DNA from: Gammaproteobacteria bacterium | GTDB lineage: Bacteria > Pseudomonadota > Gammaproteobacteria > Burkholderiales > SG8-41 | Direction: 5' to 3' | Assembly (NCBI GenBank): GCA_041497655.1 | Contig: JBGQGU010000001.1 | Span: forward strand, 1 to 42,217 | Length of the DNA stretch: 42,217 bases | In this document: one piece after another, positions 9,087-28,151 of the stretch | Layout of the letters: every line of letters begins with the position of its first letter | How positions within the stretch are numbered: the stretch's first letter is position 1 | Position numbers and translations under genes: made by a program | The notes under the pieces: model-generated | Database searches by the model: none | Told to the model about the DNA's origin: nothing | What the model saw: the letters and a program-made list of their open reading frames with translations, nothing else

Positions 9087-9105
9087 CTCATTTCGACGAA
9101 GGGAC

Positions 9106-10077: not shown

Positions 10078-10120
10078 CGAACGCGCCTTGCGCCAATGTG
10101 GTCATACCGGTGGGGAAAAC

Positions 10121-11110
10121 ATGAAAACCGTTACCAGGACAAGCCACTTCGCGCTGTGCGCATTGACCGCGCACCTCATCACGGCTTCAAGCGCCGCTTA
10201 TGCGCAGGACTACCCCACCAGACCGGTGCGGCTCGTCGTGCCCACGGCGCCAGGCGGTGGCACCGACATCTCGGCGCGCCTGATTGCGCCCAAGCTCTCC
10301 GAGTATCTCGGACAGCCGGTCGTGGTCGAGGACCGCGCCGGGGGAAACACCAGCGTCGGCGTAGAGTTCGTCGCCAAGTCGCCGCCCGACGGCTACACGC
10401 TGCTGATGGGCATCAGCTCGCTCGCCATCAACCCCCATACCCAGTCCAAGGTCCCTTACGACCCCGTGAAGGACTTCGCACCGGTCTCGCAGGTGGTGGT
10501 AGTGCCTCTCATCCTGGTCTCGCATCCCTCGCTGCCGACCCGATCGGTAAAGGAACTGGTCGCGTTCGCCAGGACGCGCCCCGGGCAGCTCAACTACGGC
10601 ACCGGCTCCGTCGGCAGCAACCCGCACCTCGCGATGGAGCTGTTCCTGTCCATGACCGGGCTGAAAGTAGTCCACGTGCCGTACCGGGGCCAGGGACCCG
10701 CCATGATCGATCTGGTGGCCGGTCACCTGCACCTGATGATGGCCAACCTCCTCACCGCACTGCCTCACGTCAGGAACGGCCGGGCTCGCGCATACGGCGT
10801 GAGCAGCATCAAACGCTCGAACGTGGCTCCCGACATTCCGACCATCGCCGAAGCGGGCGTACCGGGCTACGAGGTCGTGCAGTGGTTCGGCGTGCTCGCC
10901 CCGGCGAACACGCCGCGTGACATCATTACCAAGCTCCATGCGGCCACGGTGCGCGTGCTGCAGGATCCCACGATCAAGGAGCGCTTCATCAGCGACGGCG
11001 CCGAGACGATCGGCAACACGCCGGAGGAATTCGCGGCCATTATCCGCGCCGATCTCAAGAAGTGGGGCAAGATGGTCAAGGATGTGGGGATCAAACCCGA
11101 TCAACGCTGA
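10121..11110 (+). CDS. Bug-family substrate-binding protein
   Basis: AQDYPTRPVRLVVPTAPGGGTDISARLIAPKL..., DGYTLLMG and a C-terminal TPEEFAAIIRADLKKWGKMV block. Start moved to ATG 10121 (MKTVTRTSHFALCALTAHLITASSAAYA signal peptide). Confidence 0.9.
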   Translation: MKTVTRTSHFALCALTAHLITASSAAYAQDYPTRPVRLVVPTAPGGGTDISARLIAPKLSEYLGQPVVVEDRAGGNTSVGVEFVAKSPPDGYTLLMGISSLAINPHTQSKVPYDPVKDFAPVSQVVVVPLILVSHPSLPTRSVKELVAFARTRPGQLNYGTGSVGSNPHLAMELFLSMTGLKVVHVPYRGQGPAMIDLVAGHLHLMMANLLTALPHVRNGRARAYGVSSIKRSNVAPDIPTIAEAGVPGYEVVQWFGVLAPANTPRDIITKLHAATVRVLQDPTIKERFISDGAETIGNTPEEFAAIIRADLKKWGKMVKDVGIKPDQR

Positions 11111-11116
11111 ATAAAC

Positions 11117-12106
11117 ATGAAAATCGTACCCTCGGAAAATCGACTCGCGCACTATGCATTGAGCGCCTGCCTCATCGCGGCATCAACCGCCGCTGATGCG
11201 CAGGACTACCCCACCAGACCGGTGCGACTCGTCGTGGCCTCGACTCCGGGCGGCGGCACCGACATCTCGGCGCGCATGATTGCGCCCAAGCTCTCAGAGT
11301 ATCTCGGCCAGCAGGTCGTCATCGAGAACCGCGCCGGGGCGACCACGACGATCGGCGTGAATTTCGTTGCGCGCGCGGCGCCCGACGGCTACACGCTGCT
11401 GATGGGCGTCAGCTCGCTCACCATCAACCCTCATATCCTGAAGAATGTCCCTTACGATGCCGTGAAGGACCTGGCGCCGGTCTCGCAGGTGGTGGTGGCG
11501 CCCAACATTATGGTCTCGCATCCCTCGCTGCCGGTGCGATCGGTGAAGGAACTGATCGCGTTCGCCAGGGCGCGTCCCGGGCAGCTCAACTTCGCCGCCG
11601 GCGGTGCCGGTTCCAGCCAGCACCTGGCAATAGAGCTGTTCCTCTCCATGACCGGGCTGAAAATAGTCCACGTGCCGTACAAAGGCCAGGGCCCCGCCCT
11701 GCTCGATGTAACGGCGGGTCACGTTTCCCTGATGATGGCCAACGTCATAAGCGCGTTGCCTCAAGTCAAGAACGGCAGGATCCGCGCAATCGGCGTGACC
11801 GGCCTCAAACGCTCAGCCGTTGCTCCCGACATTCCGACCATCGCCGAAGCCGGCGTGCCGGGCTACGAGGTCGTGCAGTGGTACGGCGTCCTGGCGCCGG
11901 CGATGACGCCGCGCGACATCATCGCCAAGCTCCATGCGGGCACGGTGCGCGCGTTGCAGGATCCCGCGATCAAGGAGCGCTTCACCAGCGACGGCGGCGA
12001 GACGGTCGGCAGCACGCCGGAGGAATTCGCGGCCGTCATCCGCGCCGATCTCAAGAAGTGGGGCAAGGTGGTCAAGGACGCGGGGATCAAGCTGGATCAA
12101 CGCTGA
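11117..12106 (+). CDS. Bug-family substrate-binding protein, tandem paralog of 10121..11110
   Basis: Collinear with the preceding gene at roughly three-quarters amino-acid identity by eye, with long identical stretches such as APDIPTIAEAGVPGYEVVQW. Confidence 0.9.
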   Translation: MKIVPSENRLAHYALSACLIAASTAADAQDYPTRPVRLVVASTPGGGTDISARMIAPKLSEYLGQQVVIENRAGATTTIGVNFVARAAPDGYTLLMGVSSLTINPHILKNVPYDAVKDLAPVSQVVVAPNIMVSHPSLPVRSVKELIAFARARPGQLNFAAGGAGSSQHLAIELFLSMTGLKIVHVPYKGQGPALLDVTAGHVSLMMANVISALPQVKNGRIRAIGVTGLKRSAVAPDIPTIAEAGVPGYEVVQWYGVLAPAMTPRDIIAKLHAGTVRALQDPAIKERFTSDGGETVGSTPEEFAAVIRADLKKWGKVVKDAGIKLDQR

Positions 12107-17043: not shown

Positions 17044-17097
17044 GGTGAGGGGGTCGATTTCCCTCACCCCTCAAGAAATCGACCCCCGGTCGATTTC
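17044..17097. repeat. nested inverted/direct repeat cluster at the core-island junction
   Basis: GGGGTCGATTTC (17050-17061) and its perfect reverse complement GAAATCGACCCC (17075-17086) are followed by a third copy, GGTCGATTTC (17088-17097). GGTGAGGG (17044-17051) pairs with CCCTCACC (17061-17068). No U-tract follows, so it is not a canonical terminator. Confidence 0.6.
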
Positions 17098-17183
17098 TTT
17101 GCGACTGCTCGCCGGTAAATAAGGGCCCCAGGAAATTCGAGTCTGACCCCGAGGCCCGGTGCGGCTTTGAACTGGAGAGGAAA

Positions 17184-17384
17184 TCAGGCCGCGTGCAACC
17201 GAACGTCCTTGATCTGCGCTCGCGCGAACTCATCCGGCACTTCGATTTCTTCGGCGTTGAACACCACAACGTCTTTCAGTTCTCGTCCGTCGACGAGCCG
17301 GATGTCTACGCGCTGGTAGCCCATTCCTGATTCGGGGAGTTCGAGTAACCGCTTAGTCCAACGTGGTTCGAGTCTGATACGCAT
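17184..17384 (-). CDS. 66-aa protein, paralog of the N-terminal domain of the upstream TNT-like protein
   Basis: MRIRLEPRWTKRLLELPESGMGYQRVDIRLVDGRELKDVVVFNAEEIEVPDEFARAQIKDVRLHAA. It shares LL..PESGMGYQ.V...L.D.......V.FNAE with residues 1-55 of 17386..18054. Alternative start ATG 17393 (MHEM...). Either start abuts or overlaps the upstream stop at 17386-17388. Confidence 0.6.
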   Translation of the reverse strand: MRIRLEPRWTKRLLELPESGMGYQRVDIRLVDGRELKDVVVFNAEEIEVPDEFARAQIKDVRLHAA

Positions 17385-17385
17385 C

Positions 17386-18054
17386 TCATGCATCCGGGAT
17401 CTTCGTTGGTCCGGTGACGGTCTTTGGCTGCGTGCCATTTGTGAAAATCACTTCGACGCCGCCGCCCGGCTGACCGAAGGCGGGTTCGACGATTCCCCGC
17501 TGAATGTCGGTATCTTTGTTCGGGCGGACGGTAAACACGTTGGACGCGGGCGCGGGGTTTGGCAAGGCGTAGCGGGCCACGGCATCCGTTCCAGTCTTGA
17601 CGTTTTTTGCGTCTTCTTCAGTTGTCGCATACGTTCCTGCGAGCAAGCTTCCATCTGAGGCGACACGTCGATCATTCGGGTAGGCCGAGAATCGCTTGAA
17701 CACTTCATCGGCCTTCGTTTTTTCCTTCGGACCATCCTTTGCCGATCCCGCCTTCTTCTGAACTTCTGCGCCGGAAGGCTCCCGCGCCGAAAGTGTAATG
17801 ACGGTCGCACGCGAGATGACTCGGAGCGATTTGATTTCTCCGGTCGCACTTCTTGCTGACTCCAAGAGTCTGAGGTAGGGCGTTGACAACATGATGCGGC
17901 GCGGCTCTTCATCAAACAACAACAATTCCGCGTTGAAGGCAACGCCGCGCTTCGTCTTGTTGTCGGACAAAGTCGCCTCGACGAATTGGTAGCCCATCCC
18001 CGATTCCGGCTGTGCCAGCAAGGCACGGGTATTCGAGTCGGTGAGTCTCAGCAT
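17386..18054 (-). CDS. two-domain protein: PESGMGYQ N-domain, Lys/Glu-rich linker and a C-terminal TNT/DUF4237-like putative NAD+ glycohydrolase domain
   Basis: The C-terminus FKRFSAY...GTYATT...ARYALPNPAPASNVFTVRPNKDTDIQRGIVEPAFGQPGGGVEVIF follows the TNT-family skeleton as I remember it (R.LPP...Y.V.kp..v..G.iaP.FGQPGGG.Q). Start set at ATG 18054 by alignment with the small paralog; the ORF track begins at GTG 18087. No signal peptide or toxin-delivery domain. Confidence 0.5.
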   Translation of the reverse strand: MLRLTDSNTRALLAQPESGMGYQFVEATLSDNKTKRGVAFNAELLLFDEEPRRIMLSTPYLRLLESARSATGEIKSLRVISRATVITLSAREPSGAEVQKKAGSAKDGPKEKTKADEVFKRFSAYPNDRRVASDGSLLAGTYATTEEDAKNVKTGTDAVARYALPNPAPASNVFTVRPNKDTDIQRGIVEPAFGQPGGGVEVIFTNGTQPKTVTGPTKIPDA

Positions 18055-18226
18055 TTGATAAGGATATCTGAATGCACGCCTTGGCACTACAATTCGCCGC
18101 TTCGCTCGCGCACGAAGCCTTTCAGATCACGCACGGCCCGGCCGAAGGTGTCCTGCGTGCCGCGCCAAGAACCGGGCCATCGATCGGGCCTGGCGCAATA
18201 ACGGTTGGCGACGTGCTTCCTCCTTT

Positions 18227-18254
18227 CGCCTTCCGCCTTCCGCCTTCCGCCTTC
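18227..18254. repeat. heptanucleotide microsatellite (CGCCTTC)x4
   Basis: Four perfect tandem copies at 18227-18254, read directly. It sits in the 315-bp spacer between the DUF45 gene end (18370) and the TNT-like gene start (18054). Confidence 0.95.
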
Positions 18255-18369
18255 CGGGCCCTCCTGGCCGGTGCATGGAGCGGATTCGACACAGCCGTCA
18301 GAACCGCTTTTCTCACTCAGCTTAGCGGTCTGTCCCCAAGCAGTTCGTTTTCAAGCTTGCGCTAAATAC

Positions 18370-19086
18370 TCAATATCCCCAAGTCTCGTGCCGGACTGGC
18401 AGCCGGTTCAGCTCGTCACGGTAGAACTGCCATTTAGGCATGAACTGGTCCATCAATATGATGAAGCGCCGACTATGGGTTGATTCCAGCAAGTGCACCA
18501 TCTCGTGCACAGCGATGTATTCGAGGCATTCTGGTGGTTTCTTTGCGAGTTCCGTATTGAGCCTAATATTCCTGGAGCGCACGTTGCAGCTACCCCATAA
18601 CGTTTTCATTCTTTGCACGAAGAACCTCTCGACCCTCACATCCATGAGTGGCTCCCATTTCGCTATCAATCGTGGAACAGCCTCTTTTAGCTTTTCGCGA
18701 TACCACTCTTCAAGGATGGCTTGCTTCTTTTCGTCATTTGTACCAGGTCGAATCTGCAGGACCATCTTGTTGTGCTTCAGCTCCACTCCCGGCGCCGCAT
18801 CCATTCCGCTCACCATGAGCAAGTAGCGTTTCCCCCAGAGATAATGGCTTTCGCGGTCGAGGTACTCGCGCGGGGTTTCGCGTTGCTGCTCACGCAGTTT
18901 TTGCTGTTGCTTCTTGACCCATCCGAGCTTGGAGATAGCAAATACGCGGATCGTGTCGATGTCCATCCGCAAGGGGGCTGAAATTCGGACCCTACCCGCT
19001 GGCGGGTAAACACTCAGATGGACGTTCTTGATGTCCTTTTTCACCACATCCACGGCGATATCGCCCAAGTCGATTCGCGTAACCAT
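18370..19086 (-). CDS. DUF45/YgjP-like (M48/SprT-like) zinc metallopeptidase
   Basis: HEMVHLLE zincin motif near the C-terminus in a protein of about 238 aa. The start ATG overlaps the hsdR stop (TGATG at 19084-19088). Confidence 0.75.
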   Translation of the reverse strand: MVTRIDLGDIAVDVVKKDIKNVHLSVYPPAGRVRISAPLRMDIDTIRVFAISKLGWVKKQQQKLREQQRETPREYLDRESHYLWGKRYLLMVSGMDAAPGVELKHNKMVLQIRPGTNDEKKQAILEEWYREKLKEAVPRLIAKWEPLMDVRVERFFVQRMKTLWGSCNVRSRNIRLNTELAKKPPECLEYIAVHEMVHLLESTHSRRFIILMDQFMPKWQFYRDELNRLPVRHETWGY

Positions 19087-22000
19087 CAGTATTCTCTTTG
19101 TTGCTTGATGATAAGGAAGATGCGCTCGACCTCGGCTATATCTTGCAAGACTCCATACAAGGCGGACTTAATAACTTGCTCGCGTGCCTGCACGCCGCGC
19201 CAACCGTCGGGCCGGACATGCTTGATGGCCGCATCAATCCTTATCGCAAGATCGAGAGCATGGTCTGCCGCAGGTGCGGCTGCAACGTTTACGCCGGTCG
19301 GAGCTGAGCGCCCCTTGAGGTTGTTGTATAGCGCACGCCGACCCGGTGTATTGAGTTGCTTGGGCGTGTCCTCGGCCTGACCTGCCTCCACCTTCTTGAC
19401 AAGTTCGGCGTAGCGCTTCAGAAGTTCCTCATACGCAATGGCTTTGGCTTTGCGGGCGGCGATGATCTCATCCAGGAGTGCCGACATCGTCTCGTAAAAA
19501 GCGGGATCGTTCAGGTGCTCTTTTATAATCTTGCTGCGAACGTTGTTCTCAATAGTTTCCGCCACGGCGTCCTTGTTGCCCTTCAGTCCGCCAAGCTGCT
19601 GGGAAATCGCGTTAGCAATACCAGTCTTCACGATCAGTTCCAGCAGACTCATGTCGTCAAAGGGCGAGATCTTCCTCGGCTCATCGGCCTCGATGTAGGT
19701 ATCGATGAGGTGCCGCATGTCGGCCTCGTAGGCTTTGAGGTCGAGCGTCTCGCCGCTGGCCTTGCGGATGATCTCGCGGATGTTCAGGTAGTGGTCGAGC
19801 TGCTTCTTGATGCGGCTGATGTCGACGGCGCTGTAGCCGGCGGGCTCCAGTTCGTCGGCGATGTTGGCATACGCGCGCGCCAGCGCAACGGCCGCCTTGT
19901 AGAGCGCGGCACGCTGCGGTTCGCGGCCCTTCAAGTCGGCAGCGATCTCGGTGTTGCCGCAGAAGTAATGGATGTGCTCCAGCTCGCCATTAGGCGGCTC
20001 GACTGGCTCGCAGAGCAGGGCAAGCGCTTCAATGGCGTTGTCGAGGCGCTCCTTGCCCTTCTTCAGCCGATCTTGCAGCAGCACCTCGGGCTCTGCCCCG
20101 CCAGCACTGTGGTCCAGCTCGGAGGTGTAGACCGCGATGGCGTTCTCGACCTTCTTGAAGAGGTCCTTGTAGTCCACGATGTAGCCGAAGTCCTTGTCCT
20201 CCCCATCCAGGCGGTTGACGCGGCAGATCGCCTGGAACAGGCCGTGGTCCTGCATGGACTTGTCGATGTAGAGATAGGTGCAGGGGGGTGCGTCGAAGCC
20301 GGTGAGGAGCTTGTCTACCACCACCAGCAGCTTCATGTTGGCCGGCTCCTTTGTGAAGAGCGCCTTGGCCCAGTCCTCGTAGGTCTCCGTCTTGGTCATG
20401 CCCGGCTTGGCGTCAACGTCCTTCAGCAGTTCGGTGTAGGTGTTGTAGATGAACTGCTTGTCAGTCTCGGTGTTGGCGCCGGTTTCCTCCAGCGTCACAT
20501 CCTTCGCCAATGGGTTGTAGGAAGTCACCACTGCGCACTTGCCCTTGAACGGCGTCTTCTGAAAGAGCACGAAGTACTTGCACGCCTCGTAGATGCTGGA
20601 GGCCACCAGGATGGCGTTGCCGCGGCCATTGCTAAGTCGAGGACGCTTCTTGAAGTCGCGGATGATGTCTTGAATCACCTTCCTCATTCGGGATTCGGAG
20701 CTGAGGACCGACTGCAATGTGCCCCACTGTTTCTTAAGCTCATCCTTCTGCCAGTCGTTAAGGTCTTTGGAGACCAGCTCAAACCATTCATCCACGCTTT
20801 CCTGGGAGGTGAGCCGCTGTTCGATGTCTCGCGCTTCGTAGACGAGGTCGAGCACAACTCCGTCCTCAACGCCCTCGCTGAACTTGTAGGTGTGGATGTA
20901 GCCGCCGAAGACCTCCAGGCTCGTTGCCCTGTCCTGCACCAGCAGCGGTGTGCCGGTGAAGCCGATGAACACCGCGTTGGGCATCATCGCCTTCATCACG
21001 CGGTGCAGCTTGCCGCTTTGCGTGCGGTGGCACTCGTCCACGAAGACGAAGACCTCGCCCACAGTCGGGCTGGGCTGGGCTTCCAGCTCCCTGATGAAGG
21101 CGTCGAAATCGTCTACGTCCCTGCGACCGAACTTGTGCACCAGTGAGCAAAGCAGCCGCGGCTTGGCCTGGCCGAGTTGGTTCATGAGGTCGCGGCCGCT
21201 GCTGGTGCGCTTGATCGCTTCGCCCGTCTCGGTGAAGACGCGCTCGATCTGCTTGTCCAGCTCGTCGCGGTCGGTAATGATCGCGACGCGGGCGTTGGGG
21301 TTGTTCTCCAGAATCCACTTCGCGAGCAGCACCATCACGATGCTCTTGCCGCTGCCCTGCGTGTGCCAGATGATGCCGCCCTTCTTCTCGCGCGCGTGCG
21401 CCTGCGCGGCCTTGACGCCGAAATACTGGTGCGCCCGCGGCAGCTTCTTTACTCCGCCGTCGAAGAGCACAAAATCGTGCATCAGCTCGATGAGCCGCCG
21501 CTTCTCGCACAGCTTGAGCAGATACTTGTCCAGCTTGAAGCGGCTGTCATCTGCTTCGTCTTCCTTCCACTTGAGGAAATACTTCTCCGGCGTGCCGATG
21601 GCGCCGTATTGCAGCCCCTCGGAGTCGTTGCCGGCGAATACGATCTGGACGGTCGAGAAGAACCACTCGTTGAACTCCTTCTGCTGGTTGGAGAGCAACT
21701 GGCGGATGCCGTCGCCGATGGAGACGCGGCTGTTCTTCAGTTCCAGCACGCCGATAGCGATGCCGTTCACATGCAGCACCAGATCGGGCCGCCGCTCGTG
21801 GTTGCCCTTGAGAGTCACCTCCTCGGCGATGGCGAAGTCGTTCTTCTCCGGCTCGCGCCAGTTGATGAGGCGCACGGTTTCCGTGACCTTGCCCGCCTCG
21901 ATTTTCACCGGCACGCCGTAGCGCAGCAGGGCGTAGACGGCCTGGTTGTTGCCGTAGAGCGTGCGACTGTGGTTGTCCGCCTCGGTGCGCAGTTTGTGCA

Positions 22001-22187
22001 GAGCCACGCTGATCTGCGCCGGGGCGTAGCCGCTTTTCGTGAGCCACGCGCTAAGTAGCCGCTCCTCGATGTTGCTATTGCCGTCGCGGTCGGTCCAGTC
22101 ACCAAGGTAGCGGTAGCCGAGCTCGTCGCGAAACAAGGTAATGACCCGATTCTGCGTGGCGCGCTCGGGTTGGCCAACGGTGCTCAT
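19086..22187 (-). CDS. hsdR: type I restriction endonuclease subunit R
   Basis: 1033 aa. N-terminal nuclease region (PDLVLHVNGIAIGVLELK, a PD-(D/E)xK-like D...ELK), SF2 helicase motifs HTQGSGKS, DECHRTQ and FTGTP, and a C-terminal HsdR domain. Confidence 0.95.
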   Translation of the reverse strand: MSTVGQPERATQNRVITLFRDELGYRYLGDWTDRDGNSNIEERLLSAWLTKSGYAPAQISVALHKLRTEADNHSRTLYGNNQAVYALLRYGVPVKIEAGKVTETVRLINWREPEKNDFAIAEEVTLKGNHERRPDLVLHVNGIAIGVLELKNSRVSIGDGIRQLLSNQQKEFNEWFFSTVQIVFAGNDSEGLQYGAIGTPEKYFLKWKEDEADDSRFKLDKYLLKLCEKRRLIELMHDFVLFDGGVKKLPRAHQYFGVKAAQAHAREKKGGIIWHTQGSGKSIVMVLLAKWILENNPNARVAIITDRDELDKQIERVFTETGEAIKRTSSGRDLMNQLGQAKPRLLCSLVHKFGRRDVDDFDAFIRELEAQPSPTVGEVFVFVDECHRTQSGKLHRVMKAMMPNAVFIGFTGTPLLVQDRATSLEVFGGYIHTYKFSEGVEDGVVLDLVYEARDIEQRLTSQESVDEWFELVSKDLNDWQKDELKKQWGTLQSVLSSESRMRKVIQDIIRDFKKRPRLSNGRGNAILVASSIYEACKYFVLFQKTPFKGKCAVVTSYNPLAKDVTLEETGANTETDKQFIYNTYTELLKDVDAKPGMTKTETYEDWAKALFTKEPANMKLLVVVDKLLTGFDAPPCTYLYIDKSMQDHGLFQAICRVNRLDGEDKDFGYIVDYKDLFKKVENAIAVYTSELDHSAGGAEPEVLLQDRLKKGKERLDNAIEALALLCEPVEPPNGELEHIHYFCGNTEIAADLKGREPQRAALYKAAVALARAYANIADELEPAGYSAVDISRIKKQLDHYLNIREIIRKASGETLDLKAYEADMRHLIDTYIEADEPRKISPFDDMSLLELIVKTGIANAISQQLGGLKGNKDAVAETIENNVRSKIIKEHLNDPAFYETMSALLDEIIAARKAKAIAYEELLKRYAELVKKVEAGQAEDTPKQLNTPGRRALYNNLKGRSAPTGVNVAAAPAADHALDLAIRIDAAIKHVRPDGWRGVQAREQVIKSALYGVLQDIAEVERIFLIIKQQREY

Positions 22188-23467
22188 ACCAGCCGAATCC
22201 TCCCCGTCAGCAATTCCTGCATTATGCCCTGCTTGAGCTGGCGCGCCTTGGTGAGCTTGGCTTCCAGCGCGGCGATCTCGGCGTCCATGTCGGAAAGGAC
22301 GGCGGCGATAGCGAATTGCTCGGGCAGTGCGGGGATTGGAAATTGCAGCTTGTTCAGCGCGGCAAGATTGACGACCTGCTGCGCGGAACCGGCACTTGGT
22401 GCTAATACCATTCGTCTTCCATCGGGTGAGTTGAGAAGGCAGACCATGTAGTCGGCCGAGACCTTGCTGTTCAGTCGAAGAAGTCCGACGGCGCGTGAAA
22501 TATTCGCCCCAATGAGGTCGTCAGGAATCCTGGCAGATGCCCCCGGATATCCGACCAAAGCAATCACAACATCGTTCTTCACAAGAGCTGTCCTGCTGTA
22601 TTCGGCAGCTTTCTCTCGCGAGACCATCGGCAGATCGGCTTTCACGCGCCCATCAATAATGTCTCCGCCGCGTAGCATCTTGACGCCGTTCTGGACAAAC
22701 GTCCCCGCCGTCACAATGCCGTAAGTCGCGTTCTGCGTTAGGACAACTCTCATACAAACCGTAGACCACTCTCCGCTGAACCCCGGCAGGCGCTTCTTGC
22801 CGGTGAGCAATTCTTGCATGGCGCCTTGCTTGAGCTGACGCTTCTTGGCGAGGAGTTGCTTCAGGGATTCGATGAGGGCATCCGCATCGCTCAATGCCTC
22901 GGCGATTGCTTCTTGTTCGGCTTTGGTAGGCGGAAGGGAAACCTCAAAGACTCTGAGTTGAGTCTTGCCAATTTCGAGGAAAGTGCTGCCACCACACAGA
23001 CTGATGAAGCCCTGCTTCTGCGCAAGTAAAAGATAATAGAGGAACTCGACATCGATGCTCTCGAACGGCACGAAGTTCTTGAAACCCTGGTTGGTGGAAA
23101 CAGGGACTCGGTTGATAGCGCACTCTCCGATCGTGGCTCTTGAAGTCATCACAACCGAGTTGGTAGGAATGATTTCAGCCGAACTGCTTTTTAGCCCTTG
23201 GAGCGAGATTTTTCGGCTGGTATCAGTAAGGTATTTGCCTCCATTCAAACCCGTAATGTCTGTAGGCGTGCACCAAAGTACATCTCCATCCCAGAACTGC
23301 GGTTGTGTAGTGCTTGGGGTACCTCCACTGCGAATGTCCGCAAGCTGATCCAATCGCTTAACCTCCCAATCGTCCGGTATCACCCCCACCTCGGTCTGCT
23401 TGAACCCGTCCGGCACGCGCTGATCCGCCGCTACCAAATAACCATTCTTGGCCTCTCTCACTTCCAT
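22184..23467 (-). CDS. hsdS: type I restriction-modification specificity subunit S
   Basis: Two target-recognition domains are separated and followed by conserved helices: LPPTKAEQEAIAEALSDADALIESLKQLLAKKRQLKQGAMQELLTGKKRL and IPALPEQFAIAAVLSDMDAEIAALEAKLTKARQLKQGIMQELLTGRIRL. Start ATG 23467 overlaps the hsdM end by 10 nt; the stop overlaps the hsdR ATG (ATGA at 22184-22187). Confidence 0.9.
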   Translation of the reverse strand: MEVREAKNGYLVAADQRVPDGFKQTEVGVIPDDWEVKRLDQLADIRSGGTPSTTQPQFWDGDVLWCTPTDITGLNGGKYLTDTSRKISLQGLKSSSAEIIPTNSVVMTSRATIGECAINRVPVSTNQGFKNFVPFESIDVEFLYYLLLAQKQGFISLCGGSTFLEIGKTQLRVFEVSLPPTKAEQEAIAEALSDADALIESLKQLLAKKRQLKQGAMQELLTGKKRLPGFSGEWSTVCMRVVLTQNATYGIVTAGTFVQNGVKMLRGGDIIDGRVKADLPMVSREKAAEYSRTALVKNDVVIALVGYPGASARIPDDLIGANISRAVGLLRLNSKVSADYMVCLLNSPDGRRMVLAPSAGSAQQVVNLAALNKLQFPIPALPEQFAIAAVLSDMDAEIAALEAKLTKARQLKQGIMQELLTGRIRLV

Positions 23468-25860
23468 GAGAACCCCATCTTTTCCAGGTGCCGATTCACC
23501 TTCGCCTCCATCTCGGCCACGCGGCTTTGCATTCGCGGTAACGGGGTTTCGTAGCGTTCGGCTAGCTCTTTCACGCGCTGGGTCAGTTGCTGGCTTACGC
23601 GGTCCATCTCGCCTTGGATAGCGGCATCGAGCGCGGCGAGCCACTTGTCGTCCGCCACCAGCGTTTTGATCTCGGACTCGGTTAGCTTCGGATACCTGGC
23701 GTAGGCCTGGGCGTCGAGCGTGGCCTCAGCCTCCTTGAGGCGCTTCTTAAGGTCGGCTTCTTCGCCGTTGAGTTTCAGCCAGTCGTTCAGCACGGTGGAT
23801 TCGTCCTTCGCGTCCTTGTCGCCTTCGATCTCGTTCAGCCGGGCGGCGACGTTGGCTTTGTTCACTTTGTCGAGTTCAGCAAACACCCCGTCCTCGCCGC
23901 CATGTTCTTCCTCCATCTCGGTGAGGCGGGCGGTGACGCCCTCCAGTTCGGCGGCTAGTTGGTCAATGGCCGCCTGTTCCTTGGCGAAATAGCGGGCGAC
24001 GATGAGGGCCTTGGGGATGAGGTCGCAGGTCCAGCCCTTGTCCTTCTCTTTGCCCTTCTTGTCCTTCTCGATGATGCGGGTGGTCTCTGCCTTCCAGCCG
24101 TCGGCGGCGATCAGGTAGCAGTCGTCCTGCATCGTCTCAGCCCAGTAGTCCATGAGGTGCTGGTAGATGTCGTAGGGGTCGATGAGCGGCTTCCCAGTGT
24201 AGTGAGCGAGCAAATCCTCAGCCAGGGCGGCGATGACCTGCTTGGGGTGGCAGCCAGGCTGTAGCGCCTTGAGTGTTGCGGCGCTGGTTTTCCGCCAGGC
24301 AGTGAAGTGGACGTTCATGCCGGCGATGAAGGCGGCGAACTCGGGGTGCTCGTAGATCGTGGATTTGACGACCGCCTTGTCCACGGCCAGATCAAGGTAC
24401 CCAGGACGCCTGTCTTTGAACAACGTCTTCCGAAGTCTCGGGCAAACTGCCCAATAGCGCTGGAGGGCATCCGCGTCAGCCGCAGGAATCCCTCCTTTCA
24501 GATGCCCCTCGATATCCTGGTTGTCTTCAGGCGTTTGGCTGTCGATGTAGCGCGAAAGGTTGAGGTTGAACTCGTTCTTCTCGATCTCTTCGAAGCTCAC
24601 CATGCGCGCATATTTTGGATCGCTTTCGTCCCGCCTGTTGAATACGTCCACGATCTTGTGGATGTCCTGGGCGCGCAGGCGGTTCTTGGGGCCGTCCTTC
24701 ATGAAGCCGCCGCTGGCATCGATCATGAAGATGCCTTTGCGGGCGTGGGCGTCCTCCTTGTCAATGACGACGATGCAGGCGGGGATGCCGGTGCCGTAGA
24801 AGAGGTTGGCTGGCAAGCCGATGATGCCCTTGATATAGCCCTTGCGAACGAGGTTGCGGCGGATGTCGGCCTCGACATTGCCGCGGAACAGCACGCCGTG
24901 CGGTAGGATGCACGCGCCTTTGCCGGTGCTCTTGAGCGAGCGGACTATGTGCAGCAGGTAAGCGTAGTCGCCCTGCTTGGCTGGCGGTGTGCCGAACGGC
25001 TGGAAGCGCTGGTAGGGGTCATTTAGCGGGTCGATCCCGGTGCTCCAGCGCTTGTCGGAAAACGGCGGATTAGCGACGACGTAATCGAAGGTCTTGAGCG
25101 TGTCGCCGTCCTTGTACTTGGGGTCGGCCAGCGTGTTGCCCTGCACGATGAGCGCGGTGGGGTAGTTGTGCAGAATCATATTCATGCGGGCGAGGCCGCT
25201 GGTGGCGGCGTCCTTTTCCTGCCCGTAGACCGTGAGGGAAGTGCCGGCCTCGTCGCCCACCTTCAGGAGCAGCGAGCCCGAGCCGCAGGTGGGGTCGTAG
25301 ACTGTGGTGGCGGCGCTGGTCTTCGCGTCTCGGATGCCGATGACCTGCGCCATGATGCGGCTGACCTCGGCGGGCGTGTAGAACTGGCCCTTGCTCTTGC
25401 CACTTTGGGTGGCGAAGTGCCGCATCAGGTATTCGTAGGCGTCGCCGAGGATGTCGTCGCCCTCGGCGCGGTTCTTGGAAAAGTCGAGCGCCTTGTTCTC
25501 GAAGATAGCGATCAGGTTGGTGAGCCGGTCCACCATCGCCTTGTCGGTGCCGAGCTTCGAGGCGTCGTTGAAGTCCGGCATGTCGGACAGCTTGTTGGCG
25601 TTGGCCAACGGGGCGATGATCTTCTTGTTGATCTGGTCGCCGATGTCGCTCTTGCCCTTGAGGGCGACCATGTCCTTGAAGCTGGCCCCCTTGGGAATGA
25701 CGATCGGCGCGTAGGGCACACCGGCGTATTTGTCGCTGACATACTTGATGAACAGCAGCACCAGGACATAGTCCTTGTACTGGCTCGCATCCATGCCGCC
25801 GCGCAGTTCGTCGCAGCTGGACCAGAGCGAGCTGTAGAGTTCTGATTTCTTGATTGCCAT
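23458..25860 (-). CDS. hsdM: type I restriction-modification methyltransferase subunit M (long form with about 350-aa coiled-coil C-terminal extension)
   Basis: HsdM_N-like N-terminus (LWSSCDELRGGMDASQYKDYVLVLLFIKYVSDK), SAM motif DPTCGSGSLL and catalytic NPPF (VVANPPFSDKRW). A Lys/Glu-rich extension ends in ERYETPLPRMQSRVAEMEAKVNRHLEKMG. Confidence 0.95.
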   Translation of the reverse strand: MAIKKSELYSSLWSSCDELRGGMDASQYKDYVLVLLFIKYVSDKYAGVPYAPIVIPKGASFKDMVALKGKSDIGDQINKKIIAPLANANKLSDMPDFNDASKLGTDKAMVDRLTNLIAIFENKALDFSKNRAEGDDILGDAYEYLMRHFATQSGKSKGQFYTPAEVSRIMAQVIGIRDAKTSAATTVYDPTCGSGSLLLKVGDEAGTSLTVYGQEKDAATSGLARMNMILHNYPTALIVQGNTLADPKYKDGDTLKTFDYVVANPPFSDKRWSTGIDPLNDPYQRFQPFGTPPAKQGDYAYLLHIVRSLKSTGKGACILPHGVLFRGNVEADIRRNLVRKGYIKGIIGLPANLFYGTGIPACIVVIDKEDAHARKGIFMIDASGGFMKDGPKNRLRAQDIHKIVDVFNRRDESDPKYARMVSFEEIEKNEFNLNLSRYIDSQTPEDNQDIEGHLKGGIPAADADALQRYWAVCPRLRKTLFKDRRPGYLDLAVDKAVVKSTIYEHPEFAAFIAGMNVHFTAWRKTSAATLKALQPGCHPKQVIAALAEDLLAHYTGKPLIDPYDIYQHLMDYWAETMQDDCYLIAADGWKAETTRIIEKDKKGKEKDKGWTCDLIPKALIVARYFAKEQAAIDQLAAELEGVTARLTEMEEEHGGEDGVFAELDKVNKANVAARLNEIEGDKDAKDESTVLNDWLKLNGEEADLKKRLKEAEATLDAQAYARYPKLTESEIKTLVADDKWLAALDAAIQGEMDRVSQQLTQRVKELAERYETPLPRMQSRVAEMEAKVNRHLEKMGFSWK

Positions 25861-25873
25861 TAATTACGGGTTC

Positions 25874-26170
25874 TCAGAGCGCGCATTGAATCCGGTGAAA
25901 AGACCTTCCGCCATCTGCTTGGTAGTCTGGTCTAGGCCCACCAAACGTCTTGTCTGAGACTGTTAGCCGCGAAATCTCATCCATAGCATAGGTTCGCCAG
26001 CCCGGGCCCTCTTTGGACTCGCTCCCACCATGGAGAAACCAAGCATTTAAAACGAGCTTCCCAGTCTTGCTAAAAGCAACCATGTGCGGCTCAACAGTAC
26101 GTTCGCCACCCTTGTACGAAAATGAAATTAGTCGCCGCCCAGCGATTGCGTGACAGATCTCATTCTGCAT
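25874..26170 (-). CDS. 98-aa stand-alone WYL-like domain protein (no HTH)
   Basis: RRLISFSYKGGERTVEPHMVAFSKTGKLVLNAWFLHGGSESKEGPGWRTYAMDEISRLTVSDKTF matches the WYL pattern (l.f.Y...R.veP..l....g.w.l.a......W+.f.ld.I..l......F). RBS GGAGGGGA. There are 13 nt to the hsdM start and 19 nt from the upstream gene stop. Confidence 0.5.
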   Translation of the reverse strand: MQNEICHAIAGRRLISFSYKGGERTVEPHMVAFSKTGKLVLNAWFLHGGSESKEGPGWRTYAMDEISRLTVSDKTFGGPRPDYQADGGRSFHRIQCAL

Positions 26171-26189
26171 ACCTTCGTCCCCTCCACTC

Positions 26190-28151
26190 TTAAATCAGGG
26201 CAGAGACAGCACCGACTATCTCCTCAAGTACAGGAACCCTATGACCTGCTTCATAAATGCTGTGTATTAACCGCGCCGCCGCTTCCGGATTTTTCAATGC
26301 CTTGGATGGTTCGCTATAGCCCAAATCGTCGGCAATCAATGCCCTTACCTCTTGGTAGTACTTCCCACCCACGGCGGCTTTGATTTCCATCTCCACATCA
26401 TCACCAAATACCGCCCATTCCTTGTTTACCTGAGTATTCGGAAAATCTACAACTGTAGCGTTCGCCAGTCTTTGCAATAATTGATTGGTTTGCGCCGTGG
26501 ACTTTTCATCTTTGTTTCCCTTCCCTTTGTGCTTGGAATCACCATCAAAGACAAAGTAAGTAGGAATCTCTAAACCACGGAACACAACAACTGGTCTATC
26601 AATCTTTGTCTTTCCTTCAGCCGGCACAATTACGATTCCGCGACGATCCCAGCCTTTCTTCATGATGTTCTGAAGGGCCCAGAAGATTCCAAACTCAGTT
26701 AACCCCTCCACAACAACAACAGAATCAGCGAAGAATCCTTCGTTAACAGTCGCATTCATTACCGGTATAGCATGAGCCAAGAAGGTATCGCCAGTGAATA
26801 GCTTTGGATCCTTTTGGCTGATAGCTGCCAGTCTTCCCGCTGCCTGATCTCTCGAGAACGCAGTAATCTTGCATTGGAGCGTCGGAACGTCCTTTGTGGG
26901 GATCTTGCGAGCAAGCCGCACTCGTTCAAAACGACCCAGATTGATGAAATACGGAGAGTGCGTCGCATAAAAGACTTGGGTACGAGCCTCCTCCGCCTTT
27001 GCAGACTTTATCGACAATTGGTCCAAGACAGAGGACAAGAATCTGCTTCGAGAAGGGTGTAGATAGAGTTCAGGCTCCTCGATTGCAAGGATGAGATCAG
27101 GCACACGAAACTTCTTGAGTTCCTCGACTTCGGCTTCGCCCTCAGCTTTCTGCTCCTTCTCGGGCGGTGATAAATCAGTCAGCGAAAGTTGTTGAAGCAA
27201 GGCGAGAACCAATGCCCTTTGCAATCCATGGCCAGAGTAGCTAATTGGAGATTTGAAATTGTCCTCGACTAGCGACGCGAGTGCCGTTGGCAATAAGATC
27301 TTGGGCGGAGTGACATCACCAAAGGCTAAATCAAGCTCAGCGCCTGGTGCGTATTGCGATAGTAACTTGGTGACCATCTTGGCAAGCTCTGTTAGTTCAG
27401 TGAGATTCTCTGCGCTGTATACGGCCTTTACTTTCTTTTCAAACTCTTCATTAAGCTCGCGTACGTCCTTTCTCGCATTCACGCTTCGTGCCACAAGGAC
27501 ATCAATCAGTTGAAGAATGACACCCTTTCTCTCGGTTTCCGACGTGGCATCACGAACGGCTGGAACTAATACAAATCTGGTGTAGTTATCAATCTTGCCT
27601 CCCCCAATATTCTTGGGCCCGAAGAATTGCTCCTCTCGTTGTGTTGGGACAAGCAATTGTGGATTCTTTTTCTCGAAGTCATCCATCAAAGCATTGGCTT
27701 CGGCGTCCGATTTTACGGTAGGCCCCAAGTCCGGATACTTCTTACTCTCGATGATCTCATTTAGTGCCTTGCGCTTTGGCAAGGCCGCCATCTTTCTGAG
27801 TTCGCTGAACTCCGCGATTTGTCCAGTAACCCCGAAATATTTTGCGCCGCCAGCATTTATCACCTTGGTTACCGTAAGCGTTTTTCCCGTCAAGTATGAC
27901 TTGAACTCGGCTAGCTCATCATCGCGCAATTCGCCGTAGGTAATCCGAATACTTATCTCCGACGTAGTGTCCTTGCCAAAGTAGTCGAATGCGTTCGCCA
28001 AGAAGCCAACGTCATAGAACGCCCCGATCGCCTTAAGTAGAGATGATTTGCCACTTCCATTTCGCCCCAGAATTGCAACAAGCTCATGACAATCAACGCC
28101 CACGTCCTTTAGTGAACGGAAATTTTTTACTTCAATGCGTTGAATAATCAA
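26190..28151 (-). CDS. ABC-type ATPase fused to a TOPRIM nuclease domain (OLD-family or fused PARIS AriA-AriB-like)
   Basis: N-terminal IEVKNFRSLKD...ILGRNGSGKSSLLKAI (Walker A), signature-like YSGHGLQRAL, Walker B/D-loop LILAIEEPELYLHP and H-loop FYATHSPYF. C-terminal TOPRIM: VVVVEGLTEFGIF (Glu) and YFVFDGDSKHKG (DxD). TTG start at 28151 is preceded by GAGGGAG. Visibly AT-richer than the neighbouring genes. Confidence 0.75.
   Translation of the reverse strand: MIIQRIEVKNFRSLKDVGVDCHELVAILGRNGSGKSSLLKAIGAFYDVGFLANAFDYFGKDTTSEISIRITYGELRDDELAEFKSYLTGKTLTVTKVINAGGAKYFGVTGQIAEFSELRKMAALPKRKALNEIIESKKYPDLGPTVKSDAEANALMDDFEKKNPQLLVPTQREEQFFGPKNIGGGKIDNYTRFVLVPAVRDATSETERKGVILQLIDVLVARSVNARKDVRELNEEFEKKVKAVYSAENLTELTELAKMVTKLLSQYAPGAELDLAFGDVTPPKILLPTALASLVEDNFKSPISYSGHGLQRALVLALLQQLSLTDLSPPEKEQKAEGEAEVEELKKFRVPDLILAIEEPELYLHPSRSRFLSSVLDQLSIKSAKAEEARTQVFYATHSPYFINLGRFERVRLARKIPTKDVPTLQCKITAFSRDQAAGRLAAISQKDPKLFTGDTFLAHAIPVMNATVNEGFFADSVVVVEGLTEFGIFWALQNIMKKGWDRRGIVIVPAEGKTKIDRPVVVFRGLEIPTYFVFDGDSKHKGKGNKDEKSTAQTNQLLQRLANATVVDFPNTQVNKEWAVFGDDVEMEIKAAVGGKYYQEVRALIADDLGYSEPSKALKNPEAAARLIHSIYEAGHRVPVLEEIVGAVSALI

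Follow-up and report, generated by a model that had tools for sequence, protein, structure and literature searches.

What do two short, unnamed genes do at the border of a bacterial defence island? On the minus strand of the window (the whole stretch of 42,217 nucleotides that was analysed), gene A (17386..18054) is followed by gene B (17184..17384), and the original prediction had made of them an intracellular NAD+-depleting effector and a small paralog of its own N-terminal domain. Gene A, as given by the ORF list and the sequence, starts with ATG and codes for a two-domain protein of 222 aa (MLRLTDS...), ending with the stop codon TGA at 17386-17388; translation could also begin from a GTG at 18087, but the homologs begin at MLKL. 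Gene B codes for 66 aa (MRIRLEPRW..., stop at 17184-17186) and consists of a stand-alone PESGMGYQ domain. A single nucleotide lies between the stop of A and the ATG of B. An in-frame ATG at 17393, the one used by gene callers, gives a B of 69 aa and an 8-nt overlap with A. Throughout the family it is the 66-aa form that is conserved, and the stop codons of A and B are 193-243 nt apart (mode 203 nt) and B starts from -8 to about +10 nt relative to the end of A in nearly all loci. The coordinates of the A stop and of both candidate B starts (17384 and 17393) check out, so that the two genes indeed abut or overlap, and the peptides quoted with the prediction are correct.

Upstream of the pair lies an intergenic region, presumed to hold the promoter (18055..18369, minus strand), in which TRF identifies a heptamer tandem repeat, CTTCCGC x5.9, at 18216-18256. 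About 85 nt downstream of B, an inverted repeat search finds two overlapping perfect hairpins (17049..17099), with stems of 12 and 13 nt that have GAAATCGACC in common. They have no T-run and the terminator scan made no call there; they are possibly a transcript end or a repeat element. The genes adjoining the pair form a defence island on the minus strand (18370..28151). It starts with a YgjP-like metallopeptidase (18370-19086, Pfam) and continues with a Type I restriction-modification (RM) system, identified both by Pfam and by PADLOC: hsdR (19086-22187, REase_I), hsdS (22184-23644, Specificity_I), and hsdM (23458-25860, MTase_I). An Old-family ATPase-TOPRIM nuclease closes it (26190-28151, Pfam and PADLOC Old). 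At 17 kb of the window the GC fraction, about 0.64 before, falls to about 0.57. The pair sits at the GC-shifted border of a Type I RM and Old island, a position at the edge of a defence island having been proposed for it.

The C-terminal block of A (residues about 105-222; 17389..17742, minus strand) had been said to follow the skeleton of the TNT NAD+ glycohydrolases, a claim that stands for the fold and falls short at the Pfam threshold. In the AF2 model of A (pLDDT 89.6, pTM 0.84), residues ~105-222 carry a TNT-type NADase fold of the ART superfamily. Ranks 1-15 of the Foldseek search of this model against PDB are all TNT-family NADases, the best being 6b12_A (Tne2; E 3e-4, probability 1.00, TM 0.68 normalised to the target), with further matches to 8pms, 6yge, 8r17, and 8r15, and then to 4qlp_B (TNT, E 0.04). 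The Pfam TNT model (PF14021, formerly DUF4237) matches residues 158-205 at model positions 25-72 of 88, with E 3.5e-4 and 21.4 bits, less than the gathering threshold of 27 bits. Weak matches to the same model are found in 32 of 38 homologs (E up to 0.1), the best E, 3.5e-4, being no better than that of the query. Sequence-profile searches of PDB, made with the full-length alignment and with that of the C-terminal domain, found no TNT protein; hence, the link between A and TNT needed structure prediction. The predicted fold and one motif are what would tie A to this family, and the fold result rules out a chance low-complexity match to the GGG motif.

The conserved motifs of the catalytic domain are F119-x-R121-F122, D128-x-R130, Y-A-T144-T145, A-R161-Y-A-L-P, and G-Q-P-G197-G-G-V-E201-V. 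Among them R121, R130, R161, and E201 are invariant in the family alignments, R161 lying within the stretch matched by Pfam. The Arg residues taken to mark a TNT pocket are those of DRXG (R757/R129) and QRXL (R780/R148), which line the NAD pocket. The hhalign comparison with fungal NADases concerns C-terminal exon fragments, so that it spans the Gln/Glu position and leaves the upstream Arg motifs outside. At that position, 'GPIAPWFEQPGMGTQF' (A. fumigatus Q194) aligns with 'IVEPAFGQPGGGVEV' (E201), both in the motif alignment to 6yge/8r17/8r15 and in hhalign to the fungal TNT exons, and QPGGG-x-E of A is placed on the QPG(M/G)G-x-Q of the solved fungal NADases. A Glu (codon GAA, 17452..17454, minus strand) thus replaces the Gln that follows GGG in TNT, as had been noticed from the letters, and this Glu201 is invariant in 74/74 aligned family members, none of which has the catalytic Gln of TNT. 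In AfNADase the Q194A/K substitutions are inactivating (PMC7955114), and Gln822 of TNT, Gln387 of Tne2, and Gln413 of Tse6 are described as similarly positioned (PMC6398120). The Gln is said to explain why AfNADase lacks cyclase and base-exchange activity, and ARTs, other NADases, and cyclases have Glu or Asp at the equivalent position (PMC7955114). Pure NAD+ hydrolysis is therefore not assured for A, whose chemistry could be that of a hydrolase, an ADP-ribosyltransferase, or a cyclase.

This substitution is an argument for an alternative that keeps the toxin and its paralogous neutraliser and changes the reaction: A would be an ADP-ribosyltransferase acting on protein or nucleic acid, an ADP-ribosyl cyclase, or a generator of a signal. 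With Glu201 as catalytic acid, oxocarbenium chemistry that Gln-type TNT enzymes lack would be permitted. In the model, R121 (strand 119-123), T144/T145 (strand 141-145, then a helix), and E201 (strand 200-204) form an R...T-T...E arrangement on three strands that may resemble the R-S-E motif of ARTs, and toxins of the DarT and ParT types are known ARTs of toxin-antitoxin and defence systems. Nevertheless, the assignment of R121 and T144 to ART regions 1 and 2 is tentative, the E/Q-x-E dyad is absent, A having G-V-E instead, and the closest structures to A are all pure NADases. We consider this alternative unlikely, if the strongest of those discussed here, and prefer the reading in which A consumes NAD+, by glycohydrolase activity or by chemistry closely related to it.

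The N-terminal domain of A (17815..18054, minus strand) is separated from the catalytic one by a linker predicted to be disordered (residues 88-100; 17755..17793, minus strand; pLDDT below 50), which is also the most variable and most gapped region of the alignment. Residues 2-53 of A and 3-55 of B have 45% identity (BLASTP, E 5e-9), and the profiles align over residues 2-50 of A and 3-52 of B with a probability of 98.8% and E 9.5e-17 (hhalign). Both values are well past chance, and the paralogy of B with the N-terminal domain of A, already suspected, is therefore firm. In the model this domain has a helix (6-13), the conserved loop P16-E-S-G-M-G-Y-Q23, three strands, a helical insert (52-66), and a strand (74-79); E17, G19, M20, G21, Q23, and N41 are invariant. 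It probably reaches about residue 80, beyond the span aligned by hhalign, because past the helical insertion 52-66 the IKSLRV strand in the model of A matches IKDVRL in B. The AF2 model of B (pLDDT 85) consists of one helix and a small beta sheet. Foldseek finds nothing significant for it in PDB or BFVD, so that the PESGMGYQ domain is without known fold relative and B is neither IFT-like, Tni2-like, nor like a known antitoxin in these databases. No DNA-binding domain (HTH, RHH, or AbrB) was detected in B, which has no Pfam, NCBIfam, or PADLOC match. B is not a mis-called ORF, as it is more conserved than A and is present in 76/82 loci.

Homologs of A are numerous and patchily distributed. There are 1106 of them, of about 220 aa, all unnamed and with a blank precomputed Pfam field in all those listed; they form about 925 clusters at 50% identity and occur in about 175/185,579 species genomes. 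Among 82 non-redundant loci, B is directly downstream of A in 76, and the loci span Verrucomicrobiota, Acidobacteriota, Bacteroidota, Omnitrophota, Gemmatimonadota, and Proteobacteria; the expectation that the two genes are kept as neighbours thus holds across several phyla. A without B is rare (3/82), and B beside a decayed A is found in 2/82. Clustering of the neighbouring ORFs of the 82 loci gave no third conserved component, which rules out a three-gene system; only an N6_N4 methyltransferase recurs, at 5 loci. In PLSDB plasmids there is one distant match, in Rhizobium, without the GMGYQ motif and without B, and hence uninformative.

Several natural variants bear on the role of B. Fusions of A with B exist (P0378 and L070, the latter being 1 of the 82 loci). 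In two loci (L044 and L054) an A reduced to its TNT domain is accompanied by B, which argues for B acting on the catalytic domain. One haplotype (L097) has lost the coding region of A by a clean deletion that spared B and the upstream region; intact A and B are also present in its sample, ERZ27267604. Such fusions, the toxin-deleted haplotype, the TNT-only A with B, and the solo phage copies of B (see below) make B a candidate antitoxin or cap. The loss of A with retention of B, together with the occurrence of solo B and the rarity of A without B, is the asymmetry expected of a toxin and its antidote. The fusions fit poorly with an antitoxin that is degraded separately; they would fit an inhibitory domain fused to its toxin as a sensor. 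The pair has the features of type II toxin-antitoxin gene pairs in being small, co-directional, translationally coupled, paired, and on mobile DNA, this last because the neighbourhoods are variable and contain transposases and integrases.

What the analysis shows is the fold of A, its paralogy with B, the coupling and conserved synteny of the two genes, their natural variants, and their genomic surroundings; we infer NAD+ as the substrate, toxicity of A, direct binding between A and B, a trigger, and an anti-phage role. A and B would then be an autonomous, horizontally mobile two-gene cassette of toxin and neutraliser, working as a toxin-antitoxin or abortive-infection module with A as the NAD-consuming toxin and B as its paralogous cap, a reading to which we give an even chance. 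A would be cytoplasmic and its TNT/ART-fold domain would most likely consume NAD+, with Glu201 as catalytic residue. B, a free copy of the N-terminal domain made by translational coupling, would bind A and keep it inactive. If this hold were lost, for example through titration of B by a phage product or its depletion by host shut-off, A would become active, NAD+ would be depleted, and the cell would stop, giving abortive-infection or addiction behaviour.

The strict co-occurrence and the fusions would likewise be shown by an obligate two-subunit enzyme without any role in conflict, in which A, under regulation, would metabolise NAD in a housekeeping or accessory role, with B as the structural or regulatory subunit on which its activity or folding depends. 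The neighbourhoods speak mostly against it. RM, defence, or mobile genes are found within 10 kb in 7/9 inspected loci (a plain count), with examples including Type I RM and Old, an N6_N4 MTase, Eco57I, GmrSD_C, TIR_2, SAVED, and MNT/HEPN, and only the two others (L114 and L115) have mostly housekeeping contexts. The patchy distribution, the high variability of the neighbourhoods, and the GC shift at the copy in the window also disagree with such a role, as do the haplotype that kept B without A and the solo phage B, both unexpected for an activating subunit. We regard it as very improbable.

A second alternative, more probable than the previous one and still rather improbable, takes A for an interbacterial toxin that leaves the cell by a route not yet recognised, and B for its immunity protein, solo B being orphan immunity. 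B is immediately downstream of a toxin domain, the order of toxin and then immunity gene being that of polymorphic toxin loci, and all characterised bacterial TNT-family proteins are secreted effectors with a downstream immunity gene (TNT-IFT, Tne2-Tni2). However, A has no signal peptide and a non-hydrophobic N-terminus, and Pfam reveals no delivery domain in it (Rhs, PAAR, LXG, WXG, MIX-type, or other), in agreement with the original prediction. No secretion-system gene recurs among the neighbours of the 82 loci, and a single compact architecture of 220 aa is maintained across phyla with very different secretion machinery. Furthermore, trafficking domains are not known to have immunity proteins paralogous to them, and neither Tni2 nor IFT resembles B in fold.

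The distribution of solo B adds to the evidence on both sides. Solo B-like ORFs, 64-84 aa long and free of any TNT ORF for 6 kb around, are present on at least 8 distinct IMG/VR contigs, and the genes near them include those for DNA polymerase, helicase, and UvsX; A is present on just 2 viral contigs. Among phage-type B loci in metagenomes, 14/80 are solo. Examples of phage solo B genes are those at 5995-6207 of L100, 6001-6195 of L105, and 6004-6207 of L099. One viral contig has NMNAT-like and NAMPT genes at a distance of about 2.7-3.6 kb from its solo B, a combination that corresponds to the NARP2-type counter to NAD depletion (bioRxiv 10.1101/2024.02.11.579819). These NAD-salvage genes fit NAD depletion by A better than another chemistry, and their occurrence beside solo B on lytic-looking phage contigs fits an intracellular conflict better than an interbacterial one. 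Some solo B are chromosomal and, in Bacteroidota-like contigs, adjoin small immunity-like genes, one of which codes for a Barstar-domain protein; for these the interbacterial-immunity reading fits too. As a tBLASTn search with A and two phage-type B proteins gave no match in 50,697 GenBank phage genomes, the phage evidence comes from metagenomic viral contigs. Under the toxin and cap reading, the solo B-like genes would provide the phages that carry them with mimics of the antitoxin. A wider version of it, possible but doubtful in our view, sees in the cassette a widespread immune module, based on NAD, in phyla that have received little study (Verrucomicrobiota, Acidobacteriota, Bacteroidota, and Omnitrophota). 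The catalytic Glu would have been re-acquired, so that a product other than plain ADP-ribose, or ADP-ribosylation of a target, may follow. The N-terminal domain as a cap in cis and B as a cap in trans would together form a lock and a phage sensor, to which phages would answer with free cap mimics, sometimes accompanied by NAD+ salvage genes.

The module appears to have been described by nobody, as had been supposed. A and B have no match in PADLOC-DB v2.0.0 at E up to 1, where their neighbours do match, and none in NCBIfam or PHROGs. A search of the literature on TNT, DUF4237, or PF14021 with defence or toxin-antitoxin gave nothing describing the pair. A family of about 925 clusters, now annotated as "hypothetical protein" without Pfam domain, would thus gain a name.

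To our knowledge, every TNT-fold NADase described so far is a secreted weapon, whether of M. tuberculosis, of T6SS bacteria, or of fungi. Compared with these toxins and their immunity proteins (CpnT-TNT/IFT of M. tuberculosis, 4QLP; Tne2/Tni2 of P. protegens, 6B12; the fungal AfNADase, 6YGE), A has in common the catalytic fold, as matched by Foldseek in the predicted model, the C-terminal signature G-Q-P-G-G-G-x-[Q/E], and the Arg-containing motif region (ARYALP, in the Pfam-matched stretch), and B is the candidate counterpart of the small neutraliser gene immediately downstream. A differs from them in remaining below the Pfam TNT threshold, in the invariant Glu at the place of the catalytic Gln, and in having the PESGMGYQ domain where a secretion or delivery domain would be. 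B, unlike IFT and Tni2, is a paralog of the N-terminal domain of A, unrelated in fold to either, and the pair is surrounded by RM, defence, and mobile genes instead of T6SS or ESX genes. The invariant change from Gln to Glu amounts to a natural experiment on hydrolase versus transferase or cyclase activity within one fold.

The proposed logic of the pair, an intracellular NAD+ consumer inactive until infection, is that of Xre-RES/MbcTA, aRES, Thoeris, and the TIR and SIR2 effectors (DSR2, SpbK). NAD+-targeting toxin-antitoxin and abortive-infection cassettes are likewise small, mobile, and found in defence islands, and phages counter NAD+-targeting systems with NAD+ reconstitution pathways and inhibitors. 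The fold predicted for A is TNT/ART-like, however, and not RES, TIR, or SIR2. B is not an HTH antitoxin and, in contrast to classical type II antitoxins, has no recognisable DNA-binding domain; no PADLOC model matches the pair. If A is intracellular and self-contained, TNT would add an enzyme fold to the effectors of NAD-targeting defence and toxin-antitoxin systems, beside TIR, SIR2, and RES.

A precedent for the proposed role of B is the "gene-within-gene" defence system Rpn_L/Rpn_S, in which the small antidote also matches one domain of the toxin: a small copy of the toxin's own domain, Rpn_S, acts as antitoxin (bioRxiv 10.1101/2023.05.02.539157). The differences are that B, a paralog diverged to 45% identity, has a gene of its own and is not translated from within that of the toxin, and that it corresponds to the N-terminal domain of the toxin, not the C-terminal one. 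As a diverged copy of a toxin domain, B would illustrate how control of a toxin can evolve in a simple way, through duplication and fission of a domain. Single-chain fusions comparable to those of A with B exist among CapRel-type systems, CapRel being a fused toxin-antitoxin sensor, and the inhibitory domain of the fusions could likewise double as sensor. A differs from Rpn and CapRel in that it is predicted to use NAD and to be neither a nuclease nor a tRNA pyrophosphokinase.

With a neutraliser that is a paralog of its toxin, one expects the interface to be compact and open to mimicry. Phage antitoxin mimics are described as acting against DarTG (PMC11481870, PMC11825919), and here, too, phage contigs that lack the toxin gene have solo homologs of a putative antidote. 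The likeness is one of analogy, as the phage copies of B are from uncultured viral contigs only, with none in GenBank phage genomes. That phages seem to carry mimics of B points to an anti-defence protein family that has so far gone unrecognised.

Gene A lies on the minus strand of the window from 18054 to 17389, with its stop codon at 17386–17388, and codes for a protein of 222 aa beginning MLRLTDSNTRALLAQPESGMGYQ. A GTG at 18087 offers an alternative start that would add 11 residues; because homologs start at the MLKL position, the start is probably 18054. Gene B follows on the minus strand, from an ATG at 17384 to 17184, and codes for 66 aa. A single nucleotide separates the stop of A from this ATG (TGA-G-ATG), and an alternative in-frame ATG at 17393, the start chosen by gene callers, gives a protein of 69 aa and an 8-nt overlap with A, so that the genes abut or overlap as had been predicted. 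Across the family it is the 66-aa form that is conserved, with stop-to-stop distances grouped around 203 nt. A and B are translationally coupled whichever start of B is used. Neither a sigma-70-like promoter nor a canonical terminator was called in scans around the pair. About 85 nt 3′ of B, at 17049–17099, there are two overlapping perfect hairpins, whose 12- and 13-nt stems have GAAATCGACC in common; they are devoid of a T-run, lie at the edge of the island where GC shifts, and may mark the end of a transcript or be a REP-like element or the remnant of an insertion site. A heptamer tandem repeat (CTTCCGC, 5.9 copies with 91% matches, 18216–18256) lies between A and the YgjP-like gene and might serve in regulation or be prone to slippage.

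The proposed paralogy between the N-terminus of A and B is real as judged by two sequence comparisons: residues 2–53 of A are 45% identical to residues 3–55 of B (BLASTP, E = 5e-9), and the profile of the A N-domain (n = 38) matches that of B (n = 28) over A 2–50 and B 3–52 (hhalign, probability 98.8%, E = 9.5e-17). Both share a helix (W/T..LL), an invariant loop P-E-[ST]-G-M-G-Y-Q, a beta hairpin, and the motif [FY]-N-A-E. The AF2 models of A (pLDDT 89.6, pTM 0.84) and B (pLDDT 85.3) suggest that the N-domain of A extends to about residue 80. From the order of secondary structures, strand 74–79 of A (IKSLRV) would be the counterpart of the last strand of B (IKDVRL), with a helical insertion at 52–66 between. 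No structure similar to B is found in PDB or BFVD (best E of 2 and 0.26, respectively), and hence its domain has no recognised fold relative in either.

The assignment of the C-terminus of A to the TNT family stands at the level of the fold, but not at that of the Pfam threshold. The sole Pfam match of A is TNT (PF14021; residues 158–205, E = 3.5e-4), with 21.4 bits, below the gathering score of 27 bits, and the same weak match is found in 32 of 38 homologs. Profile searches of PDB sequences did not recover TNT proteins. Yet the best fifteen PDB fold matches of the A model (Foldseek) are all TNT-family NADases: Tne2 (6b12_A; E = 3e-4, probability 1.00, TM 0.68 on the target, 121 columns), the enzymes of A. 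fumigatus, N. crassa, and F. oxysporum among ranks 2–14 (8pms, 6yge, 6ygf, 6ygg, 8pmr, 8r17, 8r15; E = 0.002–0.02), and TNT itself (4qlp_B; E = 0.04). After rank 15, E leaps to at least 0.3 and the folds are unrelated. In solved structures, the motif of fungal NADases is ...GPIAPWF(E/G)QPG(M/Q/L)G(T/V/A)Q(F/Y), and its counterpart in A reads IVEPAFGQPGGGVEV; the motif stretches also align between a divergent family profile and fungal TNT exon fragments (hhalign, E = 7e-4, 23 columns).

The Gln of this motif is Q194 of AfNADase, which touches the 2′′-OH of the nicotinamide ribose and whose Q194A/K mutants are inactive (PMC7955114); similar positions are described for the Gln residues of TNT (Q822), Tne2 (Q387), and Tse6 (Q413) (PMC6398120). 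In ARTs, other NADases, and cyclases, this place is taken by Glu or Asp (PMC7955114). Glu201 of A occupies the Q194 position and is invariant in both the close alignment (n = 38) and the divergent one (n = 36, 27–50% identity), which bears out the Glu-for-Gln exchange after GGG noticed in the original prediction. On the model, the A family is thus best described as a TNT fold with an ART-like catalytic acid. The same Glu201 speaks for the same architecture with A as an ADP-ribosyltransferase or cyclase, which we consider unlikely. Other invariant residues are R121 (F-x-R-F), D128-x-R130, T144-T145, D148, R161-Y162 (A-R-Y-A-L-P), and G197–G199, plausibly all pocket residues. R161 lies within the Pfam-matched stretch and may be the counterpart of the QRXL arginine, and R121-F122 seems to resemble R129-F130 of AfNADase.

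The family is large. A 90%-clustered protein collection holds 1106 relatives of A at E ≤ 1e-3; among the 120 matches listed, nearly all are 198–243 aa long, the Pfam field is empty in every one, and about 50 are called "hypothetical protein" by a source, the others being nameless. Clustered at 50% identity, the matches of an exhaustive profile search form 925 clusters, and E is ≤ 1e-10 for 637. The GTDB species set contains 175 stretches with a gene for a relative, mostly in MAGs of Verrucomicrobiota, Acidobacteriota, Omnitrophota, Gemmatimonadota, and Bacteroidota, with a few in Proteobacteria; the only cultured isolate among the best 80 is Geminisphaera colitermitum TAV2. A 238-aa hypothetical protein of the Rhizobium leguminosarum plasmid CP050566.1 (L112, 5602–6318) is the sole match in 72,556 plasmids; it has the C-terminal family motifs (VGRYALP, FGQAGGGVEV), a degenerate N-terminus lacking PESGMGYQ, and no B downstream.

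The two genes were expected to be conserved neighbors, and they are. When each ORF of 82 non-redundant loci was scored with the HMMs of A and B, a B-type ORF was found directly 3′ of A on the same strand in 76 loci. The others are a 302-aa A–B fusion in Ekhidna (L070), two loci with a frameshifted or split A and B retained (L041, L084), and three with A alone (L052, L064, L067). Beyond A and B, all-against-all clustering of neighbor ORFs shows no conserved gene: 5 loci have an N6_N4 DNA methyltransferase, and the remaining "conserved" clusters only mirror A on the opposite strand. Therefore, A–B is an autonomous two-gene cassette moving among very different genomes. N6_N4 methyltransferases of about 400–550 aa adjoin the pair or a solo B (a B-type gene without TNT-type A nearby) at loci L001, L006, L070, L173, and L193; in L006, the methyltransferase ends 25 nt upstream of A on the same strand, and in L001 and L006 an unannotated ORF of 263–270 aa stands beside it.

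Natural variants bear on the relation between the two proteins. In the Ekhidna sp. MAG (L070, 9983–10891) and in a second fusion found among the representatives (P0378, 317 aa), a B-type domain is fused to the C-terminus of A. These single chains (N-domain–TNT–B) argue for a physical 1:1 association. An N6_N4-type methyltransferase (SPPY motif) begins just 3′ of the L070 fusion. In two Acidobacteria MAGs (L044, 9995–10556; L054, 9989–10549), A is a 117-aa TNT domain alone, preceded by an unrelated ORF and followed by a normal B; since TNT-only A is still accompanied by B, the partner of B would be the catalytic domain and not the N-domain alone. Compared with window positions 17154–18346, a metagenome contig (L097; ENA ERZ27267604 k141_170027) cleanly lacks the coding region of A (18043→17402) and retains B and the upstream region, the latter only 85% identical to the stretch that holds the heptamer repeat in the window; an intact A+B contig (L096) comes from the same sample. 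Allowing for a possible assembly error, such asymmetry is what one would expect if A were harmful and B its antidote.

Solo B genes are also found elsewhere. In IMG/VR, only two contigs have A, one with B (L089) and one without (L090), and at least 8 distinct viral contigs (47–186 kb, 23–44% GC) have a full-length B-type ORF of 64–84 aa and no TNT ORF within 6 kb; their neighbors match PHROG families of DNA polymerase, DNA helicase, UvsX-like recombinase, and endonuclease. In one phage (L105/L092; relative L106/L093), solo B lies 2.7–3.6 kb upstream of an NMNAT-type cytidylyltransferase-like ORF and a nicotinamide phosphoribosyltransferase (in L105, IMG/VR UViG_3300005914_000007, B is at 6001–6195 and the further ORFs at 8902–9807 and 9813–11408). 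Together, an NMNAT- and a NAMPT-type enzyme constitute NARP2, a pathway with which phages restore the NAD+ that defences deplete (bioRxiv 10.1101/2024.02.11.579819). The vicinity of solo B to what looks like a NARP2-type pair is pointed, but a single anecdotal case. With phage-type B as the seed, a scan of metagenomes yielded 80 loci, of which 57 have B paired with a TNT ORF and 14, in which no less than 800 nt upstream could be seen, have solo B; another 8 are undetermined, and in 1 no B-type ORF was scored.

In bacterial-looking contigs, some solo B copies adjoin IS200-type Y1 transposases, N6_N4 methyltransferases, a Barstar-domain protein, DUF433, or a DUF6978–DUF1828 pair. Two unrelated metagenome contigs (L149, 3627–5201; L153, 3670–5195) have a DUF6978-like gene (160–164 aa), a DUF1828 gene (257–259 aa), and solo B in the same order, so that B-type proteins may partner with modules beyond the TNT enzyme. 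RAYT-like IS200-type Y1 transposase genes lie directly beside solo B or A–B in L146 (4360–5201), L183 (4417–5201), L001, and L004, which hints at a route of cassette mobility. The orphan B near a Barstar-like gene, the gene order, and the precedent of TNT would suit a secreted interbacterial toxin with B as its immunity protein; as A has no delivery domain, no secretion gene recurs beside the pair in the 82 loci, and the architecture is constant across phyla, we find this quite improbable. That A and B are two subunits of an enzyme foreign to conflict is very improbable, given that the distribution is patchy and mobile and that variants exist with A deleted or with solo B.

The location at the edge of a defence island is confirmed by the surroundings. 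At the cassette, GC drops from about 0.64 to about 0.57. On the left side, the genes are metabolic and encode an Amidohydro_2 protein, two TctC receptors, and a UbiD-family protein. On the right side there are a YgjP-like metallopeptidase (18370–19086), joined end-to-start to hsdR (19086–22187), which with hsdS (22184–23644) and hsdM (23458–25860) forms a complete Type I RM system, and an Old-family ATPase-TOPRIM nuclease (26190–28151) with a GC of only 0.49. Beside the latter, a 389-aa ORF (28473–29642, minus strand), with no Pfam or PADLOC match and a weak PHROG match, may be its partner. Further right, a tyrosine integrase (30603–31820), a D5_N/DUF5906 primase-helicase (33091–34590), and an Sf6-type small terminase (34723–35478) together suggest a prophage or a phage satellite next to the island. 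RM, defence, or mobile genes occur within 10 kb in 6 of the 8 other loci with Pfam-annotated genes (N6_N4 MTase and Eco57I, each directly adjacent; GmrSD_C; TIR_2; SAVED with TIR_2; MNT/HEPN; SocA_Panacea; PLD-SNF2; and many transposases), and the other 2 have mostly housekeeping surroundings. Qualitatively, the window and these eight loci fit an association with defence and mobile elements.

We propose that A would be a cytoplasmic NAD-utilising toxin and B its dedicated protein inhibitor, kept in fixed ratio by translational coupling. Because of the paralogy, the retention of B by TNT-only A, and the position of the B domain after TNT in the fusions, the catalytic domain would sit between two paralogous caps, of which the N-domain works in cis and B in trans. 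If B were released or titrated, by a phage protein or by lack of its resynthesis after host shut-off, the enzyme would become free, use up NAD(P)+ or alter a target, and arrest growth; a phage that makes a B-like protein of its own would cap A again. Rpn_L/Rpn_S (bioRxiv 10.1101/2023.05.02.539157) is a precedent for dominant-negative control of a toxin by a copy of one of its domains, and DarTG (PMC11481870, PMC11825919) is one for phage antitoxin mimics. Fungal TNT NADases are obligate homodimers (PMC11187862), and by analogy B could alternatively block A–A assembly by heterodimerising with the N-domain; the TNT-only A variants with B argue against this as the sole mechanism. Beside the observed fold, motif, paralogy, coupling, synteny, variants, and context, on which all computable parts of the original interpretation held, its functional part (substrate, toxicity, binding, trigger, and defence) is what we infer, and we give the toxin–neutraliser picture as a whole about an even chance.

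No PADLOC (PADLOC-DB of 2023), NCBIfam, or PHROG model covers A or B, and a non-exhaustive full-text literature search on TNT/DUF4237/PF14021 in a defence or toxin–antitoxin setting found no description of the module, in line with the earlier statement that no described defence system with this architecture was known to its author. A resembles the TNT-family NADases in its modeled fold and proposed working and differs from them in its Pfam score, under threshold, and in its Glu in place of the catalytic Gln. The cassette would behave like toxin–antitoxin or Abi modules, but unlike classical type II antitoxins, B has no DNA-binding domain. A–B thus extends an established theme, that of NAD-targeting toxin–neutraliser or abortive-infection modules, and opens no new one. 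Within it, this large, unnamed, and tightly organised family holds some real surprises. Unusual are the apparent intracellular use of a Glu-type TNT fold, a putative neutraliser paralogous to a domain of the toxin itself, and mimics apparently carried by phages.
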